Assembly: GCA_964016885.1 (NCBI GenBank)
Contig: OZ024743.1
Location: 340,814,001-340,878,000 of the forward strand
Origin: Eledone cirrhosa
Taxonomy: Eukaryota
Direction of reading: 5' to 3'
DNA length: 64,000 nucleotides
A program made the translations under genes and the position numbers. Position 1 is the first letter of the stretch; the number at the start of each line of letters is the position of its first letter. A model generated the notes under the pieces. It had not been told where the DNA came from, did no database searches, and worked only from the letters and a program-made list of their open reading frames with translations. This document shows, in pieces, positions 3,059-62,384 of this stretch.

Positions 3059-3128
<70 letters not shown>

Positions 3129-3134
<6 letters not shown>

Positions 3135-4462
3135 TGGAATAAATGCTCTGAAATAGCGATATATATGTGAATATAGACATAGAATATTCGAAAATATTCT
3201 GTATGTTTATAATAAACATTTTGAAGACCTAATCGCTATAGAATAGAATACGTCACGTATTACAATTAGATTCTCGATAAAAGCAAGGGAAGTAATCTAC
3301 GCGTTTCATTCTCGTTAGAAATCATCAGGACTACATATCCAGTGCTTTTATCGAGAATGACACAGCTAGAGACTTATAGAATACTTAGCTGTGTACAGGA
3401 ACTGGTTTGAAAGAGCGGTTGCCGGTCCGGCAGAAATTAGAAATTGGAATAAATGCTCTGAAATAGCGATATATATGTGAATATAGACATAGAATATTCG
3501 AAAATATTTTCGAATATTCTATGTCTATATTCACATATATATCGCTATTTCAGAGCATTTATTCCAATTTCTAATTTCTGCCGGACCGGCAACCGCTCTT
3601 TCAAACCAGTTCCTGTACACAGCTAAGTATTCTATAAGTCTCTAGCTGTGTCATTCTCGATAAAAGCACTGGATATGTAGTCCTGATGATTTCTAACGAG
3701 AATGAAACGCGTAGATTACTTCCCTTGCTTTTATCGAGAATCTAATTGTAATACGTGACGTATTCTATTCTATAGCGATTAGGTCTTCAAAATGTTTATT
3801 ATAAACATACAGAATATTTTCGAATATTCTATGTCTATATTCACATATATATCGCTATTTCAGAGCATTTATTCCAATTTCTAATTTCTGCCGGACCGGC
3901 AACCGCTCTTTCAAACCAGTTCCTGTACACAGCTAAGTATTCTATAAGTCTCTAGCTGTGTCATTCTTGATAAAAGCACTGGATATGTAGTCCTGATGAT
4001 TTCTAACGAGAATGAAACGCGTAGATTACTTCCCTTGCTTTTATCGAGAATCTAATTGTAATACGTGACGTATTCTATTCTATAGCGATTAGGTCTTCAA
4101 AATGTTTATTATAAACATACAGAATATTTTCGAATATTCTATGTCTATATTCACATATATATCGCTATTTCAGAGCATTTATTCCAATTTCTAATTTCTG
4201 CCGGACCGGCAACCGCTCTTTCAAACCAGTTCCTGTACACAGCTAAGTATTCTATAAGTCTCTAGCTGTGTCATTCTCGATAAAAGCACTGGATATGTAG
4301 TCCTGATGATTTCTAACGAGAATGAAACGCGTAGATTACTTCCCTTGCTTTTATCGAGAATCTAATTGTAATACGTGACGTATTCTATTCTATAGCGATT
4401 AGGTCTTCAAAATGTTTATTATAAACATACAGAATATTTTCGAATATTCTATGTCTATATTC

Positions 4463-4463
<1 letters not shown>
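3129..4463. repeat. 310-bp HHR-containing unit: 377-bp inverted arm (3129-3505) joined without spacer to about 3.1 tandem copies (3506-4463), flanked by (AT)n
   Basis: ATCGCTATTT recurs at 3541, 3851 and 4161. The palindrome centre is AAAAT|ATTTT at 3505/3506. I saw one substitution between copies (3968). Confidence 0.95.
3654..3740 (+). ncRNA. Minimal type I hammerhead ribozyme motif (also 3964-4050 +, 4274-4360 +, 3271-3357 -)
   Basis: GTAGTC-CTGATGA-t TTCT aacg AGAA t-GAAA-CGCG-TA^GATTAC. Stem I GTAGTC/GATTAC is extended by a 15-bp helix TTCTCGATAAAAGCA/TGCTTTTATCGAGAA. Predicted cleavage is after GUA at 3713. Confidence 0.85.
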
Positions 4464-4496
<33 letters not shown>

Positions 4497-4543
4497 ATAT
4501 ATATTGTGTATATATATATATATGTGTGTGTATATATATTGTA

Positions 4544-4835
4544 ACAAGTACATATGTTGTTGAGGTGTACAATTTTGTCAATACTTTGATATGTCCAGTT
4601 CCTGGTTGGGTTGTTATTTCACTGAGGAACTGGAATAACAACCCAACCAGGAACTGGACATATCAGAGTATTGACAAAATTATACACCTCAACAACATAC
4701 GTACTTGTCTATACCACACTAATTCGGACTGCCTGAAGAAGTCACAGCCAAAGATGGCTGTCACCGAAATATATATAGCAGTAATAAACGAAGCTAAATT
4801 TTAAACATTTGACTTTTTATTTTACTTTAATTTTA
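4544..4835 (+). mobile_element. Short PLE pLTR-like element with inverted 5' arm (4544-4634 vs 4634-4708); second copy at 61345-61562
   Basis: Inverted repeat followed by HHR and AATAAA, starting at an (AT)/(GT) array. Confidence 0.75.
4728..4782 (+). ncRNA. Type I HHR motif (copy at 61456-61510 +)
   Basis: ACTGC-CTGAAGA-[ACAGCCA aaga TGGCTGT stem II]-GAAA-TATATA-TA^GCAGT, then AATAAA. Confidence 0.8.
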
Positions 4836-4950
4836 CATTACTTCGGAGTAACCAAACCAACCTGCGCACCTCGTCGAGTACTCCAGCCTGCATACAGAAG
4901 TGTTGGTATACAACCAACATATACTCAAAATCTCTCTCTCTCTATATATA

Positions 4951-5821
4951 TAAATGAAAATAGAGAAATTAATGTGAGCAAGAAGCCAACAGTATTTCAT
5001 AATATATAAGTGACTATAACGTCAAAATGGAAAATAATTAACGTAAGATATGGGAAAATAATTCAAACTCAATTAAAAAAAGAACCAAGATATAGATTTT
5101 ATCCACAGACTTTGTGAAATCCAGGGAAAAAACCAATAGAGTCTTGACTCAGAATAAAATAAAGTCCATCCTTCAATTTGGAAAAACTACAAATGGTCTA
5201 TAAAAAGACTATTTCACGAAACCTTTCAGTGCGATTAGTCACGGTTGGAGTCGTTCATCAGTAGAGCTCAACACAATAACTTAAAATCACTGCCAAAATA
5301 TGCCAGAAAGGGAATTCAAAAGCAGGCTAGTTCACCTCGTGCGGAATTATGAAAATAAATACACATGGAGAAAGATGGCTGGTGACGTCAGAATGAGACG
5401 AATGTCTGTTTACAAGAAACAGCAGTCAAAAACATTCCGAAAAAACTCTACAAAATGTAAGGAGTTCAGCAAATAGCAATATTATCAAGGTCTTTTTTAA
5501 AAAAAGACAAATAATTTTAAGCACTCTAGGAAAAATTCCGAGTATAAATATAAATGAAAATAGAGAAATTAATGTGAGCAAGAAGCCAACAGTATTTCAT
5601 AATATATAAGTGACTATAACGTCAAAATGGAAAATAATTAACATAAGATATGGGAAAATAATTCAAACTCAATTAAAAACAAAATCAAGATATAGATTTT
5701 ATCCACAGATTTTGTGAAATCCAGGGAAAAAACTAATAGAGTCTTGACTCAGAATAAAATAAAGTTTAAATACTCATCCTTCAATTTGGAAAAACTACAA
5801 ATGGTCTATATAGTCTTAAAA

Positions 5822-5826
<5 letters not shown>
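4951..5826. repeat. Partial tandem repeat, period 600 bp; diverged third copy at 41882-42330
   Basis: TAAATGAAAATAGAGAAATTAATGTGAGC at 4951 and 5551, bounded by (AT)n. Partial tandems are typical of PLE insertions. Confidence 0.8.
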
Positions 5827-5871
<45 letters not shown>

Positions 5872-6632
5872 TATGAGAGAAAGAGATAGTTACACACATA
5901 CATAGTATTATGTATAATATGTAAGTCTACTTTATCCAATGTGTCCGTCCTCTTGCTTTTGCAGAATGGTGTGTTATTAAGGACTTTCGGCTGCTATTTC
6001 TAGCAAGTTGAGCGATTATGTACTGCATTTTCCATTAATTCAAACTTACGTAAAATGGTAATTAAGACTTGTAACCCTAATCTTGAATAGGAGAAGGAAG
6101 GTTGCCAATTTCTGTCATGCTCCCTCGAATTGGTCCGGAAGATCGAGCAACATTAATTGTAACGTTATCTTATAGGTTTCTATCGCACGAAGTTTGGATT
6201 AATAACATTGTGCGATATATAATCATTCCCCTCCATGCTTCTCGTCTTCCTCTCTTCTCTCTCATTCCAGGATTGACAGTATCATTAGAAGGTCGGACAT
6301 AATATATTGCAGTGTTTGTTCCGGTTCGTTACGTTCTGAGTTCAAATTTCACCTTTCTAATCATCCTCTTTTCTTCTTCCATCCTTCCTCTCTTCTCCCG
6401 CATTGCTGGATTAGCAGAACCACTAAATCAGCAGACGAAATGCCTTGTGCTAATTGTTCCCGCTTTCTACATTCTGAGTATAATCATGTCAAGATGTCTA
6501 TAAATTACTGAGGTCGATTTAATCGATGATTCCCCCCCCCCCCCCCGCCCTAGATTTCTCACTTTTCTATTTTAGAAACGATCAACTGTAATCATCGAGT
6601 TGAAGAAATAACCTCTACGTCTCATTTAACTA

Positions 6633-6823
6633 ATAATTGTTTCTATTTTAGGCACAAGGCCAGCAATTACCCAGTACAATACTGGTACTTTATTTTATCG
6701 ACCCCGTAAGGATGAGAGGCAAAGTTAACCTCGGCGGGATTTGAACTCAGATCATAAAGGGACGTAACTCTATGCTTCAAAGCATGGTGTCCGACTCTCT
6801 ACCGATACTGCCAATCCACCGCA
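6633..6823 (-). mobile_element. tRNA-derived SINE (about 190 bp)
   Basis: Reverse strand shows A-box-like TGGCAGTATCGG, B box GAGTTCAAATCC, core GCCTYTCATCCTTACGGGGTCGATAAAATAAAGTACCAG and an AT-rich tail. At least 8 copies are in the window. Confidence 0.85.
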
Positions 6824-10239: not shown

Positions 10240-10975
<736 letters not shown>

Positions 10976-12339: not shown

Positions 12340-13790
12340 TATTTATGTAATTTTGATAATTTTCATAGATTTTGGCCAGTATTGCCCAGCAATGTCTAAC
12401 TTAATTGCACCACCTGGCGAAGTCTTTGCAATCATGATTTGAATACCATGGCCCATTCAAGTTCAGAGTTATTGTTTACGGAGACATATCAGGGTGTTGC
12501 AGGGATATCCGGGATTTCTTGGAGGAATATGTCTAAAGACATTTTGAATTTTATGGGATCTGTTTCCAATTTTATGTTTTTGTGTAATGTTAAAGAAAGC
12601 GGGACCGTAATGTTGTTATGAGATGCGAGTTTGATTTTTGTTGTTTGTTGTGGGTGGAGAGCACGGGGCCCAAGTCTTAGGTGTATTTTAAAGATGATGT
12701 CGACATCATTTGGGCAATGATGTTGGAATATTTTTCACATCATTCAAATAATGTAGCGCTGACAGCGGCCTTGTAGAGAGTAGAGTTTCAGCTTTTTTAA
12801 TCAACCCTAATAATGAAGGCCTGTCATGCTGTCTATCTTTTATTGTGACTGACTTTTAAAATACTTCAGTTTTCATAATACTTTGTTTCGTGTAGGGAGA
12901 CCACATTGGACCACAGTATTCAAGGTGGGATCAGGCAAAAGTAAGGAAGAGAAAGATAATGGTGTGGATATCTCTCGACTGGAAATTTCTGAGAATCCAG
13001 GAACACATTCTACGGGCCATGTCAACTTTGCTGTTTATATGGGTGGCCCAGCTTATGGTATTATCAACAATTACTCTCAGGTCTCTGATGTTATTTGATG
13101 CCACAAACGTTTCACCCGAGGGAATGAAATATGATAGTTTCAGTGCAAGGAGGATTAGTTCGAATTTAACCTCGTTCAGTAGCATATTGTTTTTTCCACC
13201 CATTGGATAACATGTAAACAGGATGGCATGTCCGGTATCATTCCATCGATGACCCTCTGTAACTTGCAGATATAGATAATGAAGAGGTGGGCCCAACACA
13301 GTACCATGTGGGACGCCACTCCTGACGCCACTACTGGAGCCACTACTGCCGCCACTCCTTCGACAACAACATGTTGGGATCTGTTTGTCAGGAAACATTT
13401 GACTCATTGCAGTAACTTTCCAGAGACAAGAATGTTGGATAGTTTTTTTCAGTAAAATGTTGTGTTCAACCCTGTCAAAGGCCTTGCTAAAATCAAGGTA
13501 GATGACATCAATGCTGGAGCTCCCTCACAAAGCTCTTCAAATGTCATCAAAGTGATGCAGGAGCTGCGTTAGGCAGCCCCTTTCATTACAGAACCCATGT
13601 TTGTTGGAGTTCAGTCGATTTTGCTTTCAAGAAAGAGAGTCATTGTGGATCTCACCACCCTCTCGAATACCTTAATGATATGAGACGTAAGTGAGGTCAG
13701 ACGGTAATTCACTGCAAGGGACTTGTTTCACTTTTTGAAAATTGGGACAACAGACTCGGTCAGACAGTTTTCAGGTATGTAGCCAGCGTC
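12340..13790 (-). mobile_element. CR1-like LINE RT remnant
   Basis: Minus-strand motifs NYRLTSLTSHIIKVFERVV, DVIYLDFSKAFDRVEH, SGVPHGTVLGP, IRDLRVIVDNTISWATHIN. Many stops and shifts. Confidence 0.85.
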
Positions 13791-14805: not shown

Positions 14806-15444
14806 CAGCTTAAAGACTCCAAAAAAACTAATTATTTGTGTATAGAAATTTTAATGACTATACAAATTCAGTTTTCTTTTAATGTAAATTCTTTTAAACT
14901 ATTCAAACAGACCAAGTTTAAGTATTTTTTGAATTTCCTAGTAACATTGATATTTCTTCAGTCACAAATAAACCTTTCTGATAGAATTTGCCTAAAGTTT
15001 TCCATTTATTTTACTAACTAGACAGTGGAGATTCTATTCATTTAGTATGCTAAAAAATTGCAGCCAATTCAGATTCAAACCAAACTTAAATGCAGAAGTA
15101 AATGTAAAATGTTGTCTTACATATACTTGACTGAAATAAGTGGTTGCATGGATACGGCTACTATTTAATGAAGTAAAAGAGTAAAGTAGTAAATCAACAT
15201 GCCTAACAGACGTTAATCCATTCTGGTTAACAGTATAGAGTACCTCTTCCGTTTCGCTGCACTTAAAATCAATAAAGGTATGATAGTTATAACCAAATCT
15301 CTTCATACACACATACATACATACATACATACATACATACATACATACATACATACATACATACATACATACATACATGGTGGGTGCCCCCTCGTTATCG
15401 AGTATGGCCATTGCACGATATAATATTACTAATAATTATCAATT

Positions 15445-15632
15445 AATTGTTTCTACTTTTGGCACAAGGCCATCAATTACCCAGTGCATTACTGGTACTT
15501 TATTTTATCGACCCCGTAAGGATGAAAGGCAAAGTTAACCTCGGCGGGATTTGAACTCAGATCATACAGGGAGGTAACTCTATGCTTCAAAGCATGGCAT
15601 CCGACCCTCTACCGATACTGCCAATCCACCGT
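15445..15632 (-). mobile_element. tRNA-derived SINE copy
   Basis: Matches 6633-6823. Confidence 0.85.
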
Positions 15633-15829
15633 GCAATACCTGTTCTTGAAGATTTTTTTAAAGTGATGAAATACTGTACATTATATGCATACATACATTT
15701 GTAATAAGGAACGCGTAACCAGGGAGTATTACACCCGATTAAGAAAAATATGTCCAAAGTTTTATTCCTACCTTTTGTAGTATTGTAGTTGTTTTTATTT
15801 CGTACAATTGGCTCGTCATTATTTTCTGT

Positions 15830-16015
15830 GTATTGGCAGTATCGGTAGAGGGTCGGACGCCATGCTTTCCAGCATAGAGTTGCGTCCCTTTATGATCTAA
15901 GTTCCAATCCCTCCGAGGTTAACTTTGCCTTTCATCCTTATGGGGTCGATAAAATAAAGTACCAGTAATACACTTGGATAATTGCTGGCCTTGTGCCAAA
16001 AGTAGAAACAATTAT
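15830..16015 (+). mobile_element. tRNA-derived SINE copy
   Basis: Reverse complement of 15445-15632. Confidence 0.85.
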
Positions 16016-16019
16016 TTTC

Positions 16020-16808
16020 CTTCTCCAATCGTTGTTTTGAGTGTCGTAATTTTCTACAGAAGTATAAAACAACTAATTGAGGGTGGGGTATTGTGGCAAT
16101 AGAATTAATTTTAATCCCCTTGAGATGATTTTGCTTCGTTGGGTTGATAGGATTATATTCGATAGATTGATTATTTTCGGCTTTTAATAATTGTTTTGTA
16201 CCATTTAGTGTCGTAGATTCTGTCGACTTGTTCTAAAAAATGATCTTTCAACTTTTTCCTTTCATTGGTATTTATGTAACTGATAGTATTTTCCTCTTAT
16301 TTTGTGATCGTTTATAGAAATTTCGGTTATTTTTTGTGCGGATTGTTGTTGTTTGTGATTGCACTGCGGGTTGTGGCTCCTGTTCCTCTGTGTATGTTGT
16401 GATCTACGGTTTCGGAATAAATCCTGGAGGAAAATGTCAAGGCCTAAAATCAAATGCTTGTAACGAAAAGAAGTTAAGCGCTAATCGAATATAGATATCC
16501 ACTAACTCGATCAAATGTACTAACAGTGGAATCCATAAATGTATATATATATATATATATATATAAGGTTAACGTTTGATATAGCAGGAAGAGGGTCTTA
16601 ATGATTCGGACGCTAGTCCTTCACTAGCTTCCGAAACATTGAGACCCTCTTCCTGCTATATCAAACATTAACCTTATATATATATATATATATATATTTA
16701 TGGATTCCACTGTTAGTACATTTGATCGAGTTCGTGGATATCTATATTCGATTAGCGCTTAACTTCTTTTCATTACAAGCATGTGATTTTAGGCCTTGAC
16801 ATTTTCCT
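16020..16808 (-). mobile_element. PLE remnant: fold-back pLTR (16428-16808, centre about 16620) followed on the minus strand by a degenerate ORF N-terminus
   Basis: Arms of about 190 bp each contain an (AT)n. Minus-strand NLSNIILSTQRSKIISRGLKL resembles the PLE N-terminal NLS..L....LSKGLKF motif. Confidence 0.6.
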
Positions 16809-16854: not shown

Positions 16855-17676
16855 TCCAAAATTAAGACAAATCATATGAATTTAATCTAAATCAAAATTA
16901 TGGGTGTCGTGCCAGAAAGACATGCGCCATATCACCCGCAAAATAAGCTCTAAGATTCTAACGAGTAGGTCCGAGCATTTTATAATAACTAGAAATTGAT
17001 TAACATATAAATAAACATGAATAATCACAGGAGATAATTTTTACAAGTGTGTAACCACACATAGTTAGCTAGGTAACTAAATAAAGTTGACCAGAACTTC
17101 AAAATATACATACCTTATAATATGATTAATCTTCCCTGTATATATTCCATTAAAGAAATATATTTCACCAATTAATCGGATGGTAAACCACGGAAGTGGA
17201 GACTTGGATTTTCCACAAGTTGTCGATAACCCTATTCACGCCACTAGGGCTAATAGATATAGCACGTGTTGCTGGCCAGTCGCTGATGTGAACTTGAAGT
17301 GTAAACACGGATCGCTGGAACTTCTTCCTTGTTGAAAATCCAAGTCTCCACTTCCGTGGTTTACCATCCGATTAATTGGTGAAATATATTTCTTTAATGG
17401 AATATATACAGGGAAGATTAATCATATTATAAGGTATCTATTTTTGAAGTTCTGGTCAACTTTATTTAGTTACCTACCTAGCTATGTGTGGTTACACACT
17501 TGTAAAAATTATCTCCTGTGATTATTCATGTTTATTTATATGTTAATCAATTTCTAGTTATTATAAAATGCTAGAATCTTAGAGCTTATTTTGCGGGTGA
17601 TATGGCGCATGTCTTTCTGGCATGACACCCATAATTTTGATTTAGGTTAAATTCATTTGATTTATCTTAATTTTGT
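16855..17676. repeat. Fold-back repeat, about 350-bp arms with about 120-bp spacer, (AT)n-flanked
   Basis: 16855-17213 is the reverse complement of 17334-17676, apart from one small indel and scattered substitutions. Confidence 0.9.
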
Positions 17677-19235: not shown

Positions 19236-19595
19236 CAAAATGACCGAGGACCAAGGTTAAGAACTTAAATCAATTCTTTAAATTCTACCCCCGTTTCAAT
19301 ACCGAATTACGCCGTACAGTGTTTAGGCAACCACGTCACCTTTTTGTTCAAATCAGACACAGGAACGATGTACTAGATTCAAGCTTATTAGCTATCGTCA
19401 GCATCGTATACCTTCCTGTCAGATGGTTGAACGTCTGAAAGTATATACTTTCCTTATGCATATTAACGGCTGAGCAGCCTAATTTGCATATCGAGTGTGT
19501 TCAGTTGGCCGGGCACACCGAAAACGAAAAAACGATTTAAGTAAGTGCCGTACTAAGAGTGAGAAATGAAATTTCGCTTCATTCTATTCCATTTA
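19236..19595 (-). mobile_element. Solo copy of the 43522-44940 HHR family (HHR at 19366-19406, GAAA mutated to GAAT)
   Basis: Shares AAGCTTATTAGCTATCGTCAGCA.CGTATACCTTCC with 43730, 44196 and 56240. Confidence 0.8.
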
Positions 19596-20072: not shown

Positions 20073-20740
20073 ATATCAATAATATTAATAAATGGAAGCT
20101 ATCTTTATAAAACCATATTTATTTTATTATATATATTTCAAGGGTATCAACATTTTGGTACCGTCTCATCAGATAAAATAGTGACATTTTCAGACAAGAA
20201 CTTAATGTTGTGAGTTCTATTTGAATAGTTTATTTATAATTCGCACATTATATTATAAATACTTCTAAAATATATAATTAGATAATCAAATAAGTAAAAA
20301 TAAATAAGTAAAAATAAATCTAATTATTTCATTCTCTCTACATCCTTACAAATATGTTCCGAACAATTATATACCTACATTCCTATAAATATTCAGTTAG
20401 TAGCTTTATTATATTTTTTCTTAAAATCTTTCCTTAATTTTCTTCCACCCTAATAATAACCCTTATTTCCTTTTCTTATTAAAAAATAATCCTAAAAATT
20501 ATTTAAATTCACCTAGCGGCTAAATGTAACGATCTTTTTCAGTTTTAACGTTATCCTCATTAGCATATTCATCTTGTGATTTGAAGTTTTCTTCACTGTT
20601 CAAATAGAACTCACAACATTAAGTTCTTGTCTGAATATGTCACTATCTGTAAACCAAAATTTTGGTAACCTTGAAATATATATAATAAAATAAATATGGT
20701 TTTATAAAGATAGCCTCCATTTATTAATATTATTGATATT
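20073..20740. repeat. Fold-back element (20073-20230 vs 20596-20740) with minus-strand HHR at 20120-20180; same family as 41085-41260
   Basis: Inverted arms seen directly. The right arm has lost CTGATGA. Confidence 0.8.
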
Positions 20741-22083: not shown

Positions 22084-22314
22084 ATGTGTGTGTGTACGTA
22101 TGTGTTTATGTATATATATATATAGGAAAAGGTTCAGCACCCCGACGACAGAGCTCAAGCTGTTTCGACGGCTATTTCTGGACCAGAAATAGCCGTCGAA
22201 ACGGCTTGTGCTCTGCCGTCGTGGTCCTGAACCTTTTCCTATTACCCACTCTACTACCCAAAGTATTGAGTACTCTGGTGCTTTACGGTTCACCTGGTTC
22301 CTTACCACACCTTC

Positions 22315-22352: not shown

Positions 22353-22555
22353 CACACTCACACATCCACACTCCTATATATATATACACAAACACATATC
22401 CACTCATATATATATACGCACGTAGACGTACATACACAAATATAACATAACAGAATATAACAGAATAGAATGTAATATAATATAATACACCATAACATTT
22501 CTCATAGCAATGCAATACAACATAATATAACATATTATACCCTTATATTATTCTG

Positions 22556-22731
22556 GGAGTATCAGTGGAAGGTCGGACGACATGCTTTCCAGCATAGTTA
22601 CTTCCCTTTACGGTCTGAGTTCAGATCCTGTCGAGGTTAACTTTGCTTTTCTTCCTTACAGGGTCGATAAAATAAAGTACCAGTAATGTATTGGGTAATT
22701 GCTGGCCTTGTGCCAAATGTAGAAACAATTA
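22556..22731 (+). mobile_element. tRNA-derived SINE copy
   Basis: Matches the 15830-16015 family. Confidence 0.8.
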
Positions 22732-23012
22732 TATTATTACAAGATACCATTTTACAATTATATAACTAATACTTGGCCATATAAAACTTTACTTTAACAA
22801 ATATTGGATATATATTTAGGCCAAGTTGCTACAAGGAATTTTATAAGTATAAACCTCTAGTGAGATTTAGATATTTGTAAGATTAGGTGAGATTATTGTT
22901 AAAATACATTTATATTGCATGTAATTTCAGAATATATATAGAGAGTACTCCTATAAGCATTTCAAAATAGATGTTTATAAATAGTCATTTATACAACTTT
23001 TATCTAGTCACA

Positions 23013-23699: not shown

Positions 23700-26105
23700 C
23701 TTGTTAAAGTTTAAATAGTACCATTATTTTAATATTTACTATAATAGAAATATTGAGAACGTTTATGTGGACATGTGGAAAGAAACTCAGAGTTTCTGTT
23801 AATAATTATTAGTTTGGATTTTAAGATATACAGATTTTCAGTTACTAACATATCCCAGTGCCCCAATAATCACAGGCATAAATCTGAAGGTATAATCAGG
23901 GTGGATTATCTGCAGATTTCTCATTAGTTCTGCATAAATATTCTCCTTTTTCGATAATCTTTGATATTATATTGGCATCTGCTGGGCAGCTAACTTCCGC
24001 TACTGTGTATGCCGTCTTTTCCCTGTCCCATATCATTATATTGGTCTGTTATGCCTGCATTTCATTGGGACTTTTACTGGAACATACCACCCGTACTCTT
24101 TCATATTTTATATATATGTATGTCTTCCATATTGTTGTAGTTTCTAATGTGTTTATTATCGGGGCTATCTTTTCTACGGATTGCATTGTACAGTGTTTTG
24201 TTCACTACATCATGCCTCATATGTAGACAGTACCGCGATGACATCTTTGGACAGCTGCTTATGGCATGGGTGAAGTCTGCACTTGTTATCACATCTAGGT
24301 GTTTTGCCTGCATCCCTATCTCTTTTGCGAATCAGGTATTTCGTGTTGATTTCCTGTTCTTGGATTGCAAAGGCGTATCATTCAAAGTGGGAGCCAATAT
24401 AGCGGTTGTTGGTCCAAGATAGGCTACTTTCTTTATCTATATACTCTCACTCTGGAGCTTCCTGGCAACATATGCATGCATAATTGTTTGCTGATAAGCA
24501 TGCAGTTTTTCATCCATCGATTAACTGCGATACTGCTGAGCGACTTCCCTGGGTGTGAGTTTTTGATTATCACACAGGGAATATCTCTCGAGGAGTTCCT
24601 TCCCAACTCTTATGATCTTATCTGTTTCATGCAGATAGACTTACTCGAGAGACGGGCTCATACGCTTCGATGTTCGTATATGTTGTCGGAGGGATATGAT
24701 GCGACATTCAAATGCTGTCTGTACTGATGTTAGGCCTCTGCCTCCCTGCTTACGTTTCAAGTAAAGGCAGTCTATGTCACTGTTGATGAGGAAGTTTCCG
24801 GTGTTGTTCAGTATTTTTCGAGTTCCAACATCAACTGCTCGGATTTCGTCTATCGTCCAATTGAGTATTCCAAACGTTGGTGTTAGGACAGGCATAGCAA
24901 GCACATTGTGAACCACTGTTTTGTTGTACGCAGAGAGTTCCGATGACCATTTTTTAAAAATCGGTTGTAGTATTCCCTGGTTACGCGTTCCTTATTACAG
25001 ATACCATTATAGGATATGTTCTCATCTATCCCCAGGTATCTGTAGCAGTCCTTATCAGATATCGGTGAAACAGTTAGGCCATTGATGACAATGTTGCTAG
25101 ATTGGTTTTTTTTCCCCGCTTTACAGTCATATATGAGCATTTATCTTGGCCAAACTCCATTCCTATATCCTTTGAGAATGTTGTAACCAGGTCAAGATTT
25201 TTCTTTATCCCATCCATGTTCTTGGCATAGAAATTCAGATCATCCACAAAGAAATTATGGGTTAGGTTCGTATCTCTGTCCTCCTGTGAGCCAATGATAT
25301 ATCTTTAACATTTCTTGAAGTTTAATGACAGGATAAATAATATCACAGAGAGACTGTCTCCTTGGACTATACCTCTGTGATATTCTATTTTATCAGTGAA
25401 AATAGAATCCTCTTTCTCTGTTTTTAACTTTAGGATAGTAGCCCAATAAAAAGACAGCTTCTCTTTGGCTCTGATAATAATGTCTGGGACTTTAGCAAGT
25501 CGGAGGCCCTCTAACATCCAAGAGTGTGGACAGAATCGAAAGCTTTCCTGTAGTCCAGCCAGACTGTAGCCATTTTTCTCCTAAGTTGTTGCACGTCCGA
25601 CATCGCAGTTTTGTTGACTAGGAGTTGTTCAGCACATCCCCAACCCCCTTTCTTTCCAGCTGCTTGTTCATCTGTGATGATGTTATTATTTTCACAGAGA
25701 TCTTGGAGGAATAGGTTCAGGCAGGCTCTATACATCTTATACATCAGGTTCTGGCATGCAATGGGTCGGTAGTATTTTGTCAAGTGGGTGTCTTTGTTCT
25801 TGGGGACCAGTAATGTTTGTGTTAATGTCAACCATTCTGGTATAAGTGTATCTCCCTTAAGAACTTGTTGGTAGAGGTCGTTAAGACACCTCCGATAGAA
25901 TATCAGTTTTTTGTACCAGTAGCCGACAATCATGTCTCTTCCTGGTGTTTTCTTATCTTGGAGTTTTCCTATCACAATCTCAAGGGTACCCTCACTTATT
26001 TCGTATGTTTTTGTTGTAGTGTAGGAGCAATAGTTCTTTTGGATTTCTTTTAGCCACACTGCATCTTGGTTGACATTCTTCTTTCACCCCATATTTTTCT
26101 CTAAA
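23700..26105 (-). mobile_element. R4/Dong-like (RLE-type) non-LTR retrotransposon, degenerate RT to RLE
   Basis: KTPGRDMIVGYWYK, YRPIACQNLMYK, WLDYRKAFDSV, RGIVQGDSLS, FFVDDL, YRYLGIDE, LYLKRKQGGRGL, IQEQEINTKY. Multiple frameshifts. The 3' boundary is approximate. Confidence 0.85.
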
Positions 26106-26191
26106 AGGAATGTATGTATGTATGTATGTATGTATGTATGTATGTATGTATGTATGTATGTATGTATGTATGTATGTATCTATGTATGTAT

Positions 26192-26865
26192 GTGATGTCA
26201 GGTCACCAGTTGGTGCTACTGGTAACATGTATCCCAGTACAACCTGTCTCATGGTCGGGTCGTTGGCGACTAAACTGGCAACCCCACCAAGGTTTCTTGG
26301 TGAGGAGGGTGACTTTGGACATCCTGCAGGACTAAAAACAAACCCTGTCAAAGGGCAAAGGAGCTCTTAAGAGTCAATGGCCATCCAAAATCATCGGGAG
26401 AGATGACCCCTTAGCCTTTGTCAAGGCAGAATTCTAGGAGAAGGAAAACTCTGATATAACACCTGCAACCCTGATGGTATCCAATGATGTTGACTTGTTC
26501 TTCTTTTTGATAAATATCATCTTGGTTAAGAGAGTGGGACTGGCTTTGTGCAGTGCCTTTGCTCACTATAAAAGTTTCACGGCACAGGCATTGCTTTATA
26601 TCTGGAGATCTCTCTGCACTTGTCATCACATGGTACCATGGGCCCAGCACTATGTGTCAATAATGGTCACAAGTGTAGTCTTTGTGCCAGAGTTTTCAAG
26701 TTGCTGGCTGGACTAAAAAGTCACACTCGTTCAGCGCATTGGTAGGGGTTCTCCTACATGGATATAAAGTAGTGGCCGTACTCGAAAACGAGTTGGCAGC
26801 CACCATGTATGTATGTATGTATGTATGTATGTATGTATGTATGTATGTATGTATGTATGTATGTC
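26192..26865 (+). mobile_element. Non-autonomous RTE-derived element (5'-UTR-like part plus 3' stem-loop and (ATGT)n tail); relatives at 26900-27180, 32411-33075, 60962-61290 (-) and 3' stub 15306-15420 (-)
   Basis: TCTAGGAGAAGGAAAACTCTGAT resembles RTE 5'-UTR motifs (from recall). It ends GGCCRTACTCG-AWAA-CGAG...GCAGCCAYCATGTATG. Confidence 0.65.
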
Positions 26866-27199
26866 AATAAGTGATTTTTTTTTTTTTTTTTTTTTTTTGC
26901 GCCGGGACATAGAAATAATCGGGCTGGATGCCCGATCGCGCAGTTAAACCACTGGGAGTGAAGAACCCCTAGCCCTTGTCAGGGCAATCTTCTAGGAGAA
27001 GGCATCCCAGGAAACTGGGTTAACTCCGACATAAAACCTGCGGGTCAGTAGTTACCGATGATGTTGATCTTTTCTTCTTTTCGGGTTATAGCTACTGTCG
27101 CTCAGAGAGTGTGATTGGCTCAGTGCACAGTCTTTCCTCACTTTAAAAATATTCGTCACGCACAGGCATTGCACGAGTGCATTAATAATTATTAATAGT

Positions 27200-28250
27200 G
27201 TACTATTATTATTATTATTATTATTATTTGCATTTATCTTGCTTTATGTTTATACGAGTTATCACCAAGTCACAACCAGTGACCTCAAGAGACAACAAGG
27301 TCCGCCATGTTCAAGAAAGAACACACATATTCACACATGCATCCTTAGTGTTTAGACTTGTGATGTACTTATATTGACAGGATCTTCCTTAGTATATGGG
27401 CAGTTCCCATTAGTACTATCTTTTGTATTTCTCCTATACGCGGGTTTCCTGGGATTTGCGATAAGTAGTCGTTAGACCCCTTAGGTATCATTCCCAGAGC
27501 GCCTACAACCACTGGTATTGTTTTAGTTCTCAATTTCCACATTTTTCCAATTTCTATCTCCAGGTCCTTATACTTGCTCAATTTTTCAAATGTTTTTATA
27601 GATACATTCTTGTCTATTGGAACAGACATATCAATTAGCAGGCATACCCTCCTTTGAAAGTCCTTCAATATTATATCAGGTCTATTTGCATCTATTTTTC
27701 GGTCTGTTTGGATGCTAAAGTTCCACAAGATTGAGATGTGATCTTTTTCAAGTATGGGAGGTGGTTGAAGCTCCCACCAATTCTTTTGATGGGGAAGGTC
27801 AAAATGCTTACACATTATCCAATGTATGTATTGTGCAGCTCTGTCATGCCTGTTTAGGTATTCGGTTGGAGCTATAGGACTGCACATTGAAATTATATGG
27901 TCAATGGTCTCTGGTTGTTTTTTGCATACACGGCATAATGGGCTGCACCCATTTTTTATTATGTTGGCTTGGTAATTTTTTGTTGGCAGACACTGATCTT
28001 GTGCGGATATAATCAGTCCTTCAGTCTCCGATTTCAGTCCAGAGGATGCCAACCACTGATGGGTTAAAGTTTTGTCAACATCAGGATTGTTAGCTCGCTC
28101 TGGGTATTTTCCATACAGAGGCTTTTCTTGCCATTTCTTAGCCAGTTTCTGTAGCAGTTCTTTCTTTGCAGTTACTTTTACCTGCTTTGCTTTTTCTGTG
28201 TTTTCCATTTCAGCAGTAAATGGGACTTCTGAAATTTGTACTTTTTTTTT
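27200..28250 (-). mobile_element. R4/Dong-like element, 5'-truncated, with (TAA)n 3' end
   Basis: Carries the intact 27369-28208 ORF and ends in (TAA)n at 27203-27228. Confidence 0.9.
27369..28208 (-). CDS. R4/Dong ORF C-terminus: CCHC zinc knuckle and restriction-like endonuclease (279 aa, truncated)
   Basis: LKSETEGLIISAQDQ, CRVCKKQPETIDHIISMC, RHD, NRPDII...IDMSVP, EKLSKYKDL, IPVVVGALG, IQKIVLMGTAHILRKIL. Confidence 0.9.
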   Translation of the reverse strand: MENTEKAKQVKVTAKKELLQKLAKKWQEKPLYGKYPERANNPDVDKTLTHQWLASSGLKSETEGLIISAQDQCLPTKNYQANIIKNGCSPLCRVCKKQPETIDHIISMCSPIAPTEYLNRHDRAAQYIHWIMCKHFDLPHQKNWWELQPPPILEKDHISILWNFSIQTDRKIDANRPDIILKDFQRRVCLLIDMSVPIDKNVSIKTFEKLSKYKDLEIEIGKMWKLRTKTIPVVVGALGMIPKGSNDYLSQIPGNPRIGEIQKIVLMGTAHILRKILSI

Positions 28251-29352
28251 TTTTCCAATTCAATGATGTTCCAGAACAATATAAAAGAGATAATTGGCAA
28301 TTTAGGTTCTGGAACAAAAAAGATCATTGGCAATAAGGGCAGGGGCCCCAGGTTATCACAGCCTGGACCCGCTCGTCATCGTGCCATTGTAATAGAGCCA
28401 AACAAGGCATTTAGTCTTGGCTGCTGGAACGTACGGACGCTGCTTGACAGGGATTCCTTGAGGCGTCAGAACGAAGGACCGCTCTTCTTGCAAAGGAGCT
28501 TCGACGTTACGATCTTGACATCGTGGCTTTATCTGAGACGAGGCTAGCTGGAGATGGTCATCTTACAGAATTTTGTGGAGAATATACATTCTTCTGGAAA
28601 GGAAGAGATGAAGGAACCAGAAGAGAGGCTGGGGTAGGATTTGCTGTTTAAACTGTGCTTGTGAACAAATTAGAAGAATTCCCAGTAGGGATTAGTGAGC
28701 GTCTTATGTCCATGAGAGTTCAGCTGGACAAGGGAAGATATGCTACCCTGGTGAGCGTGTATGCTCCAACTATGAGTTCTGTCGATGAGGTAAAGATGTC
28801 CTTTTACCATGCTTTGAAAGGTGTTTTAAGAAATCTCCCTCAGGCAGACAAAGTCATCGTGCTTGGTGACTTTAATGCTAGAGTGGGTAGAGATTTTAAC
28901 ACATGGAAAGTAATCGGAAGGCATGGGGTGGGAAAGTGTAACAGCAATGGTATGCTCCTGCTGCAGATGTGTGAGGAGCTGGATCTGTGTGTTACCAACA
29001 CCATGTTCCAACAAAAGAAAAAAATTGAAGACCACATGAATGCATCCTGCATCTAAGGAATGGCATCTTTTGAACTACGTCCTAGTCAGGATGCGTGACA
29101 GACAGGATGTGCAGTGTGTTCGTGTTCTTTGTGGAGCTGAGTGCTGGACGGACCACCGCCTGGTACGCGCAAAAGTGAAACTAATCACTAAACGTAAAAT
29201 ACGGGCTCCTGGTGTTGCCTTGTCCAAAAGATTGAATGCTGCTCGTCTTAAGGATAAAAATGTGAAGAGGACATTGGAAGAAGAGATGCAGGCTGCAGAT
29301 CTTGGTGAGGATTGGCCGACCCTTAAAAAGTCGGTTTATGATGTAGGCAGGC

Positions 29353-31149
29353 GTGTTCTGGGATTGGTGCAGAGGAAACATCAGGACTGGTTTGATATCT
29401 ACATCAGTACATATAGAAGACTTGTTGGCTGATAAGAGGCGTGCTCTGTCACGCTACTTGACGGCAAAACCACAGGAGAGGAATACGTTGCATGAGGTAA
29501 TCAGGGATGTAAAATCACGTGTTAGGCGGAGTCTTTCTCAGATGAAGGATCAGTGGTGGAGTGAGAAGGCTGGTGAGATACAAACTGCGTCTGATTCCAA
29601 TAACACAAAGCTGTTGTACAGTCTCTTGCGTGAGGTTTATGGACCGTCTTCTTCTATGGTGACACCGCTTCGCAGCAAGGATGGCAAAGAACTTCTTCGT
29701 GACTCACAAGGAATTCTACGTAGGTGGCGAGAGCACTTTGATGATCTTTTGAATCAGCCGTCTGTCGTCAGTGAAGATTTCCTCAATCTCATTCCAGAAA
29801 GTCCTGTGAAAGTAGCTCTCGCAGAACCTCCGACGCTTGTGGAGGTTGCAGTGGCTATTTCGAAGCTGAACAGTGGAAGATCTCCAGGTATGGATGGCAT
29901 ACATGCTGAGCTCCTACAATATGGTGGTGAGAGACTCCTGCAACATCTTTACTCTTTGTTTGGCAGGATATGGGCTAATGAATCCGTACCTGAGGACTGG
30001 AGAGATGCAGTAATGGTGGTCTTGTACAAGGGAAAGGGTAACAGGAACGATTGTGGGAACTACAGAGGTATATCATTGCTTTCTGTCGTAGGGAAAGTTT
30101 TATGTAGGGTGCTTCTGGACCGTCTGCTGACACACATTGCAGATTGTGTTCTTCCTGAAAGTCAATCTGGTTTTCGTGCTGGACGCGGCGCTACTGATAT
30201 GATCTTCTCAGCTAGACAGCTCCAGGAGAAGTGCATGGAACAAGGCTTGGATCTGTATCAGGTTTTTGTCGATCTGACAAAAGCTTTCGATACTGTTAAC
30301 AGAGATGCATTATGGAAGGTTCTCCAGAAACTTGGTTGCCCTGATAAGTTCCTTGCTTTAGTTAGGTCTTTCCATGACGACATGAAGGCTTGGGTTAATG
30401 TCGGGGGTAACATGTCGGAGCCTATCTCAGTAAAAAATGGAGTGAAGCAGGGGGATATTCCAGCACCGACCCTGTTTGCCATATACTTTGCAATGGTTTT
30501 CTGTATTGCATTCAGTAATTGCGAGCATGGTGTTTACATCCGATATCGAACCTCAGGCAGCATATTTAACATCAGGCGCTTTGCTGCGAAGACAAAAGTG
30601 TTTACATCAATCATGAGAGACCTCTTGTATGCAGATGATTGCGATCTTGTAGCGCACACAGAGAGTGATATGCAGCACATTTTGAATGCATTTTCTGACG
30701 CTTGCACTGCCCTAGGTCTGACTGTCAGTCTCAAGAAAACCGTCGTCATGTACCAACCTGCCCCTGGTAAGCAGTACACTGAACCAAACATCTATGTGTA
30801 TGGCAAACGACTTGGAGTGGTTGATCAGTTTGTCTACCTGGGAAGCACTGTCAATCGATACAGCAACCTTGACAGTGAAATCTCACTTAGGATTAGGAAA
30901 GCAAGTGATGCTTTCGGAAAGCTAGAAAGGCGACTCTGGGGTCGGCGAGACATATCCAGGAGGACAAAGGTAAAGGTGTACAGGCCATGTGTGCTCTCAT
31001 GTCTTCTTTATGCCTGCGAGACCTGGGTCACATATCGACACCACCTTAAGCAATTGGAGCGTTTCCATCAGATGTGTCTCAGACGGATCCATGGCGTTCA
31101 CTGGAGGGACCACATCAGTGATCGAGATTTTGGAAAGCTCTATGTGTGA
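29353..31149 (+). pseudogene. RTE reverse transcriptase domain (longest open segment, 598 aa)
   Basis: Complete RT motif set including YADD. Joined to neighbouring segments only by frameshifts. Confidence 0.92.
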
Positions 31150-31498
31150 CAGTATAGAATCTCTTGTGCTTAAGCAACGACTCCGTTGGAGTGGTCACCT
31201 TGCCAGGATGAAGGATTCTAGAATACCAAAACAACTCTTTTATGGAGAGTTGGTTAAAGGAAAACGACCGCCACATAAACCAAAAAAGAGGTATAAGGAT
31301 TCCTTGAAAGCCTCTCTGAAAGACGCTAACATCTCTGCTGATACATGGGAGAATATTGCTGCTGATCGTAATAAATGAAGAAAGACTGTATATGAGGGAA
31401 AAGTTGCCTTTGAGGCATCTCGAATCGCATACGAGAAAGTAAAGCGGGATGTGATGTAGGGCATTGCTGTTGCACTTCCAGACGGCGAGGGTCCTCCT

Positions 31499-31807
31499 AT
31501 GGTGCTGACATGCAGCGTATGTGCGAGACTCTGCCTAAGCAAAGCTGGACTCGAAAGTCATCTTCGCAGTCATAAAGTAAGACCAGTGGTTGACTACCAG
31601 GCTGCTGTTGGAGATGCTAATCATCATGCTTGCCAAACATGTGGTAGAGAATGTAAATCAGCAGGAGGGCTCAAGCGACATGCAGAAGTACACGAACTCC
31701 AACCACAGCCGACTATTCCCAGTGAATGTTTTGGTTGCCGACTCTGTGCAAGACATTTTAGATCATTGGCTGGGCTAAAAAGCCACATTCGATCGCAGCG
31801 CTGTTAG
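31499..31807 (+). pseudogene. RTE C-terminal segment with three C2H2-type zinc fingers
   Basis: CSVCARLCLSKAGLESHLRSH, CQTCGRECKSAGGLKRHAEVH, CRLCARHFRSLAGLKSHIRSQ. It is collinear with the RTE ORF end. Confidence 0.75.
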
Positions 31808-34775: not shown

Positions 34776-36249
34776 GAAATATATACATATACTTATATAG
34801 AAAAGAAATAAGATTTCGCCTCAAGCATAGCTTTATACAATATGTATAGAAATTTCGTTTTAGGATAGAAATACGGTTTTAAGAAGCCGTAGCTATGAAA
34901 ACACCGGGGTGCTAACGCCCTCTGCTGGTGTCCAGCAGAAGCAAGGAGGACAACCGTCTATGCATTTTAGGCTTGACTGGCCATCGTCAGGACGACCCCT
35001 CCCACCGCTTGCGACTGCTGGACTTGAAAACAGCCGAGAATATATAGCTATTCTCGAAGCGAAAACTTATTTCTTTTCTATTATAAGTTGAGCCAACTTA
35101 TGCAGCTTCAGATTTAGTGCCACACTGGGTATGACTATATCTTATTTTCCTTATATACTTATCCTTTTACACATCTGTTACCTAAAATTATTACACGACA
35201 CTAGAATATTACTTTTTATATTTGTTTATCTTTAATTACTCCCCATTTTGTAATGATTACAAGTAGTACGTTGTGGTGTTAGGGTTTATATCTACATCTC
35301 ATCTGTATTTATTGCGGTGTAGGATGGGATTGTATTCCATATAAATCCAAATCTGGACGGCACATGTAACCCGGTTTAACTTGGGATTGACTATGGTTTC
35401 TTTACCTATTTAATCAAATTTTACTACCTTTACACTTCACACCGCTGGTGTGAATAACTAATAATTGTTTGGTAAGCGCTGGATGATCGGCTGGCTGTGA
35501 CGACCTTCCCGCTTTCACTCCCGGCGCCTTCCTGGAGTGCTTGAAAAAATAAAATTTCCTTTCCTTCGGTAGACGAAAATACTCGGAACGGCTGGTTCAC
35601 CCTTGGGCCCTGGGTGGACCAAGAATCCGTCGCGTCACTGGTTATTTGCCGCCAAACAGTACTCCTAAATTTTAAAATTAAATTTTTAATCCTTAATCTT
35701 AACTTTAAATTATACCCTAAAATTTTATGACAATCAAAGATATATTTAAATTTTACATACAAATTTTAAAACTAAATCCTTCTACAAATTCTTTAACTAA
35801 ATCTTTCAATTTTAAACCTAAATTTTACATTTTTAATCTTTAATCTTATTTTAAATTATATCATTCAATTCAAAACCTAAATTTTACACGTATAATCTTT
35901 AATCGTAATTTCAAACTCTACCTTAAAGCCTTCTGGGTTCTGGTTCTCACTGTACACAGTTCAGTATATCTTTTAGTACTTTTGACCAACGCCAACGAAA
36001 ATGTTTTCTTCTATGTAACCTGAGTTCCTTCACCACTAGCACGTGTCCGTTTGGCTGTGAGTGACAGCGCGGTAGTAGTGGAATGCACTATAGGCCTAAA
36101 GCCCCCTGACCAGATCGACAAGACGAAATTAAGTAGATTCCTCACTCAAAGGCGGTCATCCAGACAGGCAACTACTGGCTCTGGCCGCCTTCTGGTCTTA
36201 AACATTTCTCACTACTTTCCAGCCTCTTGGATTGTGTCTACCATTATAA

Positions 36250-36357
36250 TCCCGCCGAGGTTAACTTTGCCTTTCATCCTTACGGGGTCGAGAAAATAAA
36301 GTACCAGTAATGTACTGGGTATTTGCTGGCCTTGTACCAAAACTAGAAACAATTATT
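36250..36357 (+). mobile_element. 5'-truncated SINE copy (others at 45758-45946 -, 51947-52050 +, 53058-53231 -)
   Basis: Core GCCGAGGTTAACTTTGCCTTTCATCCTTACGGGGTCGA. Confidence 0.8.
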
Positions 36358-36648
36358 ATATTCCTTTATTAAATACATTTCGTAACGCCTGATGATGTCA
36401 CCGGGTTCTTACAGATCGCGGTCATTGAAATGTACACAGTGTATGTAATAAATCTTTAAGGAATTTGTCCAGTCTAGCTTCCTGCTTTTTACACAATAAT
36501 AATTAACTCCGTTCTCGCACCATCAACAAGATTGAACATAAACGAAGATGGGTGAGTAGCAATACGTCGAGTGCTTTTCCTAATATTACATCACGGTTGA
36601 TTATACAGAATTACCATTTCTATCCAGTGGTGAACCAACAAACCTAAA

Positions 36649-36764: not shown

Positions 36765-37054
36765 ATAAAGAAAAAGAGATGAAATCGAAAATACAACTGG
36801 AGTCTAATTTTTTAAAAATATATATATTTATTTGGTTCCTTTACCGGTTTCGCAGTTCTTCTGCTTTTCAAAAGGTGAGTTGAGATGTAGGGTCTGTGGT
36901 TTTTCTCACATCTGTGAGAAAAACCACAGACCCTCCATCTCAACTCACCTTTTGAAAAGCAGAAGAACTGCGAAACCGGTAAAGGAACCAAATAAATATA
37001 TATATTTAAAAAAAAAATAAAACTCCAGTTGCATTTTCGATTTCATCTCTTTTT

Positions 37055-37060
<6 letters not shown>
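36765..37060. repeat. Near-perfect palindrome (centre about 36911) with an HHR-like motif in each arm
   Basis: CCTT-TTGAAAA-GCAG aagaa CTGC-GAAA-CCGG-TA^AAGG at 36948-36985, then AATAAA. Confidence 0.85.
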
Positions 37061-37110: not shown

Positions 37111-37284
37111 GTTATATATATATATATAGAGAGAGATGTTATATAGTAAGGTGCATTATTGATTGTGTAAAATGGTCCAATAAATTTATGTTAGCAATAT
37201 TAAGTTCTCCACGCTTTTGTATATCTCCAATTCCATTCAAGGGAACAGCTAGATGATGTAAAACGGAGTATAAGTATCAAAATA

Positions 37285-37903
37285 AAAATCCGAAGGCAAG
37301 GTAAAATTTCAATCATTTAATCACGACACATGTTTCAATAAGAGATAGATCGATTGTGAAGCCATGATCGATTATCACTGATCTCATCATGTGAAAATGA
37401 ATTGTCTTCAAATTCTTGATATGAGGGAGAAAATATAACGATGTTCTCTCACAGAATTCATTCCCTCATATGAAAACACACCAGTCAGAGACACGGCGAC
37501 TGCTATTAACTTCAGTTGAGGTCATACAAGTTGTCGGATTTCTATCGCTGCAGAATACGCTGGACATCAATCAAATCTCTAGGGATATAGTTAATGTGAG
37601 TGGGTACACACACACTGCGTACCCACATACACCGGCTCGAGGTCAAAGAAAGAAATATATACATATACATACACACATCAACACAGTATCAAACCTGTAG
37701 AATTATACAAGGTCACAGATAGTGTAGGTGGGTACACACACACTCTCACACACACCGACGCGATGTCAGAGAAAAAAATATAAGGAAACAAATATAAGAA
37801 TGTACCAACACAGCATTCACCGAAAGTTAGTTCACAAAACAACAGATGCTATACTGGTCAAATCTCAATTTTGACGATGTAAATTTGAAATACTGGGTTA
37901 ACC

Positions 37904-38002
<99 letters not shown>

Positions 38003-39880
38003 GCAAGTAAGTTCAGGTCAGTGTTCTGCTATACGTATATAGATTGAATTGTAACATCCATATCTTCAAATGTATGTTATGGTATATACACATCCGAATC
38101 GTCTAAAAAAGGGCATGTCTGGGTATACACACATCCATGTCAAGAGCGAGCAATCAGCTCATATCGAACTCATATGGGCCAATGAACTTTTAAGATAGTT
38201 GTTTGAGTGATGGAGGTGTGTTATCCAACACAGAAGATGAAGTAAAAAAAAAAAATATCATCAAGCTGTCCTTCTCCACAACTAGTAACATAGCTCAGAA
38301 TATAGCTAAGATGAATTATAGTAGACTTAGGACACCCCAAGAGGCAATTAGGCATGGCAGGAACAATGGCAGCTCTATGGAGGAACTGACTCATACACGT
38401 GAGGTGAGTCAGGTGTCCCCAATCCCATGGAATTTACCCATAGAGCAGACAGGAACTGAGATCCGACCCCTAAGGTACCGCGGTTCATCTGGAACTACCC
38501 AGGTCGACAGCAAAAAATGTAACTGCAGAAGCACCGCCACCTGCCCCATGGCTGGGAAATGCCTTACCAAAAACATAGTCTACGACTGTAAGGTCTCCAC
38601 TTCTGATAGAACCTTTAGGTATGTTGGGGCAACTGCCACGGAATTTAAGGATAGATGGTATAATCACAGCCATACCTTTAATAGATTAGATAAAAAAAAT
38701 AGCACGGCACTTTCTGAATTAGTCTGGAAGCTTAAACATCAGAATATAGAGCACTCCTTATCCTGGTCCACATTTTGCTCAGCCCAACCTTATAACGGCA
38801 GCACTGGCGTCTGCAATTTATGTATAGCTGAAACCTTTAATATTATTAGAGGCGGCCCCCTATTAATTAATAGGAGCGCTGATTTTTTCAGCAACTGCCA
38901 ACATAGAACCTCGAAAACCTTTCGCAGGATTTTAGAAGGTAACCTACCAGTAACTCCTCCCTCTCTACTTTAGCCACAGCGTTCTCTCAATAAACAGACA
39001 GTCACACACTCAGATAGTTAGACGGCTAAGAATTTTTGCGAACTTACAAACGATACTCGGCCTGTTTCCACGGAGTTCTCACAGCTGAGTGCACTTTTTT
39101 AGAATACCTAGCTAGTAAATAGTTAGATTGATTACACATTTAGAATACCTAGTTAGTAATTGATTGCACACCCAGGCATGACTGGTTACGCGCACCTACC
39201 TTTACTTTAAGATACCCTAACCATTGAGTTCTCTCAGTTGGGATATAGCTAGTCGTATTACACACTTAGATAGGACTGATTACGCTATCTATACATAACT
39301 CTACACACAGTACCCGCTTCCTTTAGACATTGAGCTCCCACAATTACGACTGTCACGTTCCTACCGACTGAACACTACACTAGGTTTTGATCCGTGATCA
39401 TCTAACCATGGAGGAGTCACTGTTACGGATTGAACAATATTACTTACACACCATTAGTGGGCCTACACACATCCTCTGGATTTTACTACCATGTTTTTTT
39501 AATTTTTCTACTTCACCTGTGTTGGATAACACACCTCCACCACTCAAACAACTATCTTAAAAGTTAATTGGCCCATATGACGGGAATCGCACTTACTGAC
39601 GCATTTACCCAATACCCAACCCTACACGGAACACCTTGCTGGCCTACATTGCGGTTGCTTGCATGCACGGATTTGGTAATTCGGATTCTCAATGGGACAG
39701 CGGTACATACTGAGTTCGATATGAGCTGATTGCTTGCTCTTGAGATGGATGTGTGTATACCCAGACATACCCTTTTTTGGACGATTCGGATGTGTATATA
39801 CCATAACATACACTTGAAGATATGGATGTTACAATTCAATTTATACACGTATAGCAGAACACTGAACTGAACTTACTTGC

Positions 39881-39913
<33 letters not shown>

Positions 39914-40533
39914 CGTGTGTGTGTGTATTTCTAATTTACATCGTCAAAATTGAGATTTGACCAGTATAGCATCTGTTGTTTTGTGAACTAACTTTCGGGG
40001 AATGCTGTGTTGGTACATTCTTATATTTGTTTCCTTATATTTTTTTCTCTGACAACGCTTCGGTGTGTGTGAGAGTGTGTGTGTACCCACCCACACTATA
40101 TGTGACCTTGTATAATTCTACAGGTTTGATATTGTGTTGATGTGTGTATCTATATGTATATATTTCTTTCTTTGACCTCGAGTCGGTGTATGTGGATGTG
40201 GAGTGTGTGTGTACCCATCACATTAACTATATCCCTACAGATTTGATTGATGTCCAGCGTCTTTTGCAACGATAGAAATCCGACAACTTTTATGACCTCA
40301 ACTGAAGTTAATAGCAGTCGCCGTGTCTCTGACTGGTGTGTTTTCATATGAGGGAATGAATTCTGTGAGAGAACATCGTTATTTTTTCTCCCCAATATCA
40401 AGAATTTGAAGACAATTCATTTTCACATGATGAGCTCAGTGATAATCGATCATGGCTTCACAATCGATCTATCTCTTATTGAAACATGTATCGTGATTAA
40501 ATGATTGGAATTTTACCTTGCCTTTGGATTTTA

Positions 40534-40535: not shown

Positions 40536-40567
<32 letters not shown>

Positions 40568-41754: not shown

Positions 41755-41886
<132 letters not shown>

Positions 41887-42361: not shown

Positions 42362-42365
<4 letters not shown>

Positions 42366-43521: not shown

Positions 43522-45058
<1,537 letters not shown>

Positions 45059-61555: not shown

Positions 61556-62384
<829 letters not shown>

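Follow-up and report, generated by a model that had tools for sequence, protein, structure and literature searches.

Metazoan non-LTR retrozymes, described in coral, mussel and axolotl, are tandem arrays of 150–450-bp units with a GC content below 50%, no open reading frame (ORF) and one type I hammerhead ribozyme, and their RNA circles have been demonstrated in all three animals (PMC7229834). The mobiliser of animal retrozymes has so far been argued from shared ribozymes, co-occurrence and homology to the pseudo-LTRs (pLTRs) of Penelope-like elements (PLEs). Retrozymes have been tied to PLE pLTRs through homology and co-occurrence (bioRxiv 10.64898/2026.07.22.740005), and a 2020 review stated that the retrozyme repeats show no motif naming the partner (PMC7761336). 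The main text of PMC7229834 does not use the word 'inverted' (0 occurrences), and the available text of bioRxiv 10.64898/2026.07.22.740005 has it in a reference title only.

Insertion of PLEs follows a layout that is by now textbook, with partial tandems, an inverted 5'-truncated copy, a tail of 30–40 bp confined to one end and a (TA)n target (PMC8557442, PMC3846280), to which Hydra- and Naiad-clade elements add a junction palindrome or overlap and a hammerhead (PMC8557442, PMC3846280, PMC11167929). For the single PLE examined in vitro, the purified protein cleaved AT-rich DNA on both strands and extended each of them. Its reverse transcription started from a pair of adjacent internal sites, which define the tail; the RNA that it used was mainly unprocessed, and insertion did not depend on ribozyme cleavage (PMC11167929). 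With (TA)n as the target of Hydra elements and frequently of Naiads as well, both clades are candidates for the partner of the element reported here. Viroids and viroid-like hammerhead circular RNAs share with this element their size, self-pairing and hammerhead, whereas the unit is integrated in DNA with retroelement scars and carries the hammerhead core on one polarity only.

We analysed a 64-kb stretch of Eledone cirrhosa DNA (64,000 nt of contig OZ024743.1, hereafter the window), in which one locus is probably a very recent, protein-free 310-bp retrozyme insertion, likely pasted into (TA)n by a PLE endonuclease/reverse transcriptase (RT). Its parts are the following.

3503..4463, plus strand: direct arm, 3.1 tandem 310-bp units; its 3' end is site X
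3128..3508, minus strand: inverted arm, 1.23 units, 100% identical; its 3' end is site Y, at 3128
3503..3508, no strand assigned: head-to-head junction, a self-complementary hexamer, AATATT, common to both arms
3128..3167, minus strand: tail of 31–40 nt, on the inverted arm only; equals 3844–3883 of the unit
3065..3129, no strand assigned: left (TA)n flank, the inferred target
4464..4539, no strand assigned: right (TA)n/(TG)n flank
3968..3968, plus strand: sole substitution among the copies, C>T within a CpG

A preliminary description of this DNA had reported a near-identical tandem array at 3506–4463 whose copies differ by a single substitution. TRF recovers the array (period 310, 3.1 copies, 3503–4472, 99% matches), and a position-by-position comparison of the copies finds only the C>T at 3968, in the middle copy, which converts a C–G pair of a long helix (see below) to U–G. 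The reported extent did not hold, since an inverted copy of 378 nt with 100% identity, missed in that description, adjoins the array on the left; the full element spans 3128–4463 (1336 bp) and contains four predicted ribozymes. A single CpG transition in 1336 bp implies that the insertion is very recent. The absence of a credible ORF was confirmed on the looped unit, where the longest ATG-started frame measures 30 aa on the plus strand and 17 aa on the minus strand. The GC content of the unit is 34.5%, below 50%, the array sequence shows no LTR-type layout, and the element lacks the RT plus GIY-YIG endonuclease ORF of an autonomous PLE.

Judged by sequence criteria, the array would be best filed among the metazoan non-LTR retrozymes. 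The earlier reading as a retrozyme is borne out by unit size, low GC content, lack of an ORF, a canonical type I hammerhead and a palindromic stem III (PMC7229834, PMC4209133), but that reading overlooked the signs of the mobiliser: beyond the described arrangement, the array has an inverted arm, a tail on one side only and ends that lie in (TA)n. Conversely, Hydra- and Naiad-clade PLEs match this insertion anatomy and differ in that here the RT/endonuclease ORF is absent and the whole element is repeat. In contrast to the demonstrated circles of the coral, mussel and axolotl retrozymes, those of the present element are putative, and we put their formation in vivo at slightly better than an even chance.

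Each of the three head-to-tail units carries one hammerhead, as had been noted, with CUGAUGA, a 4-bp stem II, GAAA, a short stem III and a 6-bp stem I, and the predicted cut sites after GUA are present at 3713, 4023 and 4333. The predicted RNA features are the following.

3677..3719, plus strand: type I hammerhead 1, stem I 6 bp, U10.1–U11.1 mismatch, stem II 4 bp; predicted cut after 3713
3987..4029, plus strand: type I hammerhead 2; predicted cut after 4023
4297..4339, plus strand: type I hammerhead 3; predicted cut after 4333
3292..3334, minus strand: type I hammerhead 4, in the inverted arm, core at 3328; predicted cut after 3298 (minus sense)
3653..3741, plus strand: 16-bp helix extending stem I, 3653–3668 with 3726–3741; present in every unit
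3811..3830, plus strand: predicted 8-bp hairpin immediately upstream of site X; its 5' arm contains the junction hexamer

The helix clamping stem I had been given as 15 bp; the long helix is there, and the pair table gives 16 bp. The local fold of the clamp region has a z-score of −4.9, with 0 of 200 shuffles equally stable. A strict type I descriptor, composed after the motif was known and allowing the 10.1–11.1 mismatch, finds 10 sites in the 64-kb window against 0 in 100 dinucleotide shuffles. At gathering score, Rfam returns nothing; relaxing the search to E = 10 yields 45 matches, none of them to a hammerhead family and most of them to microRNA-type hairpins on the palindromes, all under gathering score. 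The minus strand of the unit contains no CUGANGA core, and other ribozyme classes were covered by Rfam alone.

The geometry found here equals that of canonical metazoan type I hammerheads (PMC4209133). Stem III is formed in each unit by the palindrome ACGCGU, giving a 2-bp stem III with a palindromic loop, and the rationale for dimer-type hammerheads has been set out (PMC6765202). A U–U in this position, at the foot of stem II, is shared by the axolotl ribozyme HHR_Amex2, whose cleavage improves in the dimer (PMC7229834), and only one of nine Xenopus retrozyme dimers was cleaved in vitro (bioRxiv 10.64898/2026.07.22.740005). Folded as a circle, the unit is predicted to be 60% paired and branched (z = −4.2). 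The catalytic stem II pairs have a probability of only 0.13–0.15 in the circular ensemble because a rival pairing occupies the GAAA core; the active hammerhead fold lies just 1.5 kcal/mol above the computed minimum, and the stem III palindrome self-duplex is predicted at −7.5 kcal/mol.

Both outer ends of the element, which are 3' ends in the ribozyme sense, run into (TA)n. Site X lies 130–139 nt past the cut site and merges with (TA)n between 4463 and 4472, and site Y lies 170 nt past it, which leaves the 31–40-nt extension on the inverted arm. As the flanks are (TA)n, no target-site duplication is readable; (TA)n tracts with 5 nt around them cover 7% of the window. The insertion has an inverted 5'-truncated copy by its 5' end, a one-sided tail and a (TA)n target, a combination that indicates the mobilising machinery, and we consider it highly probable that this is a retrozyme-type element mobilised by a PLE.

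The arms form a perfect 378-bp palindrome without spacer, as a fold-back chimeric read would, alone or with an over-expanded repeat in the assembly. Such an artefact is very improbable, as (i) the left flank is not the mirror of the right, (ii) the same layout occurs where the arms differ (18 mismatches versus 248 matches at one locus, 10 versus 288 at another) and (iii) the ends agree with those of an older relative in the window. Recurrence of the layout with diverged arms at other loci makes a read fold-back unlikely. Two of these loci are the following.

61648..62287, no strand assigned: older relative, 68% identity, period ~317 bp; a head-to-head pair of arms flanked on either side by (TA)n
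43522..44940, no strand assigned: 466-bp hammerhead family; a tandem pair of units and one inverted unit, one arm longer by 61 nt, ends in (TA)n

The older relative is the first of the diverged cases: its arms start 65 nt apart and overlap by 3 nt (AAA) at the junction. One of them ends at X and the other at the equivalent of Y, and one arm bears a tail of 34 nt. At both of the two loci of the 310-bp family on which this pattern is based, one arm reaches X and the other Y. The relative also keeps an 11–13-bp clamp and a 7-bp version of the 3811–3830 hairpin, both with other letters.

In the 466-bp family, the ribozyme has the same geometry and the same U–U as the 310-bp one. Five of the six stem I pairs and two of the four stem II pairs have both partners changed, and three of the four copies tabulated carry another palindrome in stem III. 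If the two families are related by descent, such a pattern would be the trace of selection on a working, dimer-type ribozyme. Further copies of this family lie at 19299–19593 and 56045–56381, about 81–83% alike to 43522–44940. A masked self-comparison of the window gives 33 local inverted-repeat rows at roughly 20 places, five of which were inspected closely for their ends.

The units could instead be the pLTRs of an autonomous PLE and the array a severely 5'-truncated or locally expanded PLE end. The insertion anatomy is indeed that of PLEs (PMC8557442, PMC3846280), and retrozymes have been reported as pLTR-derived, with local tandem expansion proposed (bioRxiv 10.64898/2026.07.22.740005). 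We nevertheless regard this origin as unlikely: the units stand directly head-to-tail without an ORF, a unit boundary is crossed in the inverted arm as well, meaning that the template was already multimeric, the unit assembles as unbranched loop contigs in both sequencing runs assembled, and the hammerhead is canonical instead of the minimal form typical of pLTRs (PMC4209133).

For the retrozyme insertion that we favour, the following course may be proposed. A source array would be transcribed across several units, neighbouring hammerheads would likely pair via the palindromic stem III, and their cutting after GUA would release a monomer that may go on to be ligated to a circle. A PLE protein would nick (TA)n on both strands, and each of the resulting 3' ends would prime cDNA at one of two internal sites, 31–40 nt apart and 130–170 nt downstream of the cut site. 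Synthesis would pass the cut sites on a template that is either a circle or an uncleaved multimer. The two cDNA ends would finally anneal via AATATT, and repair would seal the head-to-head junction.

Because both arms cross cleavage sites, a cleaved linear monomer was not the template. This crossing fits circle and uncleaved multimer templates equally; rolling reverse transcription of a circle, which the preliminary description had offered as a possible source of the tandem copies, is thus possible but not distinguished from copying of an uncleaved multimeric transcript.

For the inversion, we lean towards two-ended priming. Its main rival, which leaves the element the same, is that a single cDNA, or an antisense template, folded back or primed itself. 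Both arms begin at one palindromic hexamer with zero spacer, inside a hairpin arm, as such self-priming would have it, and self-priming at junction palindromes has been proposed for rotifer PLEs (PMC3846280). On the other hand, the junction centre differs from the loop of the natural hairpin, and at 61648–62287 the arm starts lie apart with only their short overlap, each outer end being at a defined site. We therefore hold fold-back to be possible, though distinctly the less probable route.

Within the window, the 68% relative co-occurs with a Hydra-type endonuclease remnant:

38203..38973, plus strand: PLE endonuclease remnant, 5'-truncated, with the Hydra-clade motifs CxCX5C, CxxC and CxH

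Pfam leaves this frame unnamed; in the Atlas, 23% of the members of one cluster provided a lead to GIY-YIG. The surrounding region, 37281–40536, has the endonuclease frame enclosed by long inverted arms whose ends lie at or close to (TA)n (586 matches and 26 mismatches in the outer part), one arm being about 150 nt longer. The remnant shows that candidate PLE machinery exists in this genome. As a proven partner of the array it was set aside, as it has no terminal sequence in common with the 3' region of the unit and no intact hammerhead; no autonomous PLE with a sequence link to the 310-bp unit was found within the window. The two hammerhead core words had no match in the PLE supplement of PMC8557442.

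The window contains several other repeats. Another hammerhead repeat is present at 4544–4834 and 61346–61561 (93% alike), with a CTGAAGA core at 4733 and 61461 and a palindromic stem III followed by AATAAA; it looks like a PLE terminal repeat, and the 4544–4834 copy has a 78-bp inverted arm and lies in the same microsatellite cluster as the 310-bp array. A further hammerhead family, with an 8-bp AT-rich stem I and a palindromic stem III, occurs next to (TA)n at 41164 (plus strand) and 20172 (minus strand), the copy at 20073–20739 having inverted arms. Decayed hammerhead cores with the U–U of the focal ribozyme, a similar stem II and a broken stem I are found at 10495 (plus), 45068 (plus) and 54773 (minus), and 45067–45193 and 54648–54774 are 84% alike. 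At 4943–5825 and 41884–42326, a partial tandem of roughly 600 bp lies between microsatellites, with relaxed hammerhead-like minus-strand cores at 5261 and 42212. Head-to-head inverted repeats also occur at 16428–16808, 16857–17675, 22122–22242, 36768–37057, 42362–42976 and other places; several are bounded by (TA)n and have no detected hammerhead core, and the repeats are probably further truncated PLE insertions.

Among more conventional sequences, a dispersed repeat of ~190 bp, which resembles an invertebrate SINE, is present in at least eight copies (6626–6821, 15436–15631, 15828–16017, 22554–22738, 36248–36366, 45751–45946, 51943–52056 and 53055–53207). Non-LTR retrotransposon remnants comprise 28652–31804 (plus strand; endonuclease, a 598-aa RT frame and C2H2 fingers), 25077–28259 (minus strand; a broken RT with zf-RVT) and 12934–13524 (minus strand; an RT piece). 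Pfam searches of the 113 frames of at least 70 aa in the window returned RT, endonuclease and zinc-finger pieces and three weak matches below cut-off, with no clear host gene among them.

Beyond this genome, between 0.63 and 1.00 of 27 sampled words of the unit are present in 20 runs, which represent 18 samples, 17 studies and 18 organism codes. In both runs assembled, X1 and X20, the full unit forms one unbranched 340-nt contig that loops back by 310 (310 + 30), with no loose ends listed and no link to coding DNA seen; such a contig fits either a circle or a tandem array. The X1 unit is identical to the focal unit (0 differences), and that of X20 has three differences, one restoring the 10.1–11.1 pair, one in loop II and one equal to the letter at 4464. 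The contigs of run X6 amount to only 4 million letters and yet contain 0.93 of the unit words, as would be consistent with high abundance in that sample. In each of two Hi-C runs from organism B, 1,938 million letters yielded 0 unit reads; about 7–34 would be expected for 4.3 copies in a genome of 5–1 Gb, provided that the organism is present in the runs. Motif scans of metagenome contigs, viral contigs and prokaryote genomes gave 0 matches.

A non-coding unit that is ~99% identical under many labels may reflect close relatives, common prey, a symbiont or contaminant, or horizontal spread. The distribution over runs, together with the near-identity of the two assembled units, would suit a mobile RNA circle that is common to several species, spreads horizontally and integrates only sometimes. 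Against this, the coded labels may stand for close relatives, metagenomes, or hosts with common prey, a symbiont or a contaminant; no run containing the unit is recorded as RNA; the hammerhead core is on one polarity only and the fold is branched; and the unit was assembled from two of the 20 runs. We consider such a circle improbable, and give an equally poor chance to its fullest form, in which a 310-nt hammerhead circle would spread horizontally among many animals at ~99% identity and land via resident Penelope machinery, primed from both (TA)n ends. If true, a horizontally spreading circle would be an infectious-like retrozyme linking genomic retrozymes and viroid-like RNAs in animals.

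We found no description of the PLE layout on an ORF-less, canonical-hammerhead array in the open-access literature; supplements and subscription papers may contain one. The locus favoured here as a retrozyme insertion is a young one that bears the putative PLE scar itself, in the form of the inverted arm, the one-sided tail, the (TA)n target and two fixed priming sites. Read from the DNA, this scar supports the mobilisation of retrozymes by PLEs, and the array would offer a defined substrate for comparing circle with multimer templates and for studying two-ended priming.
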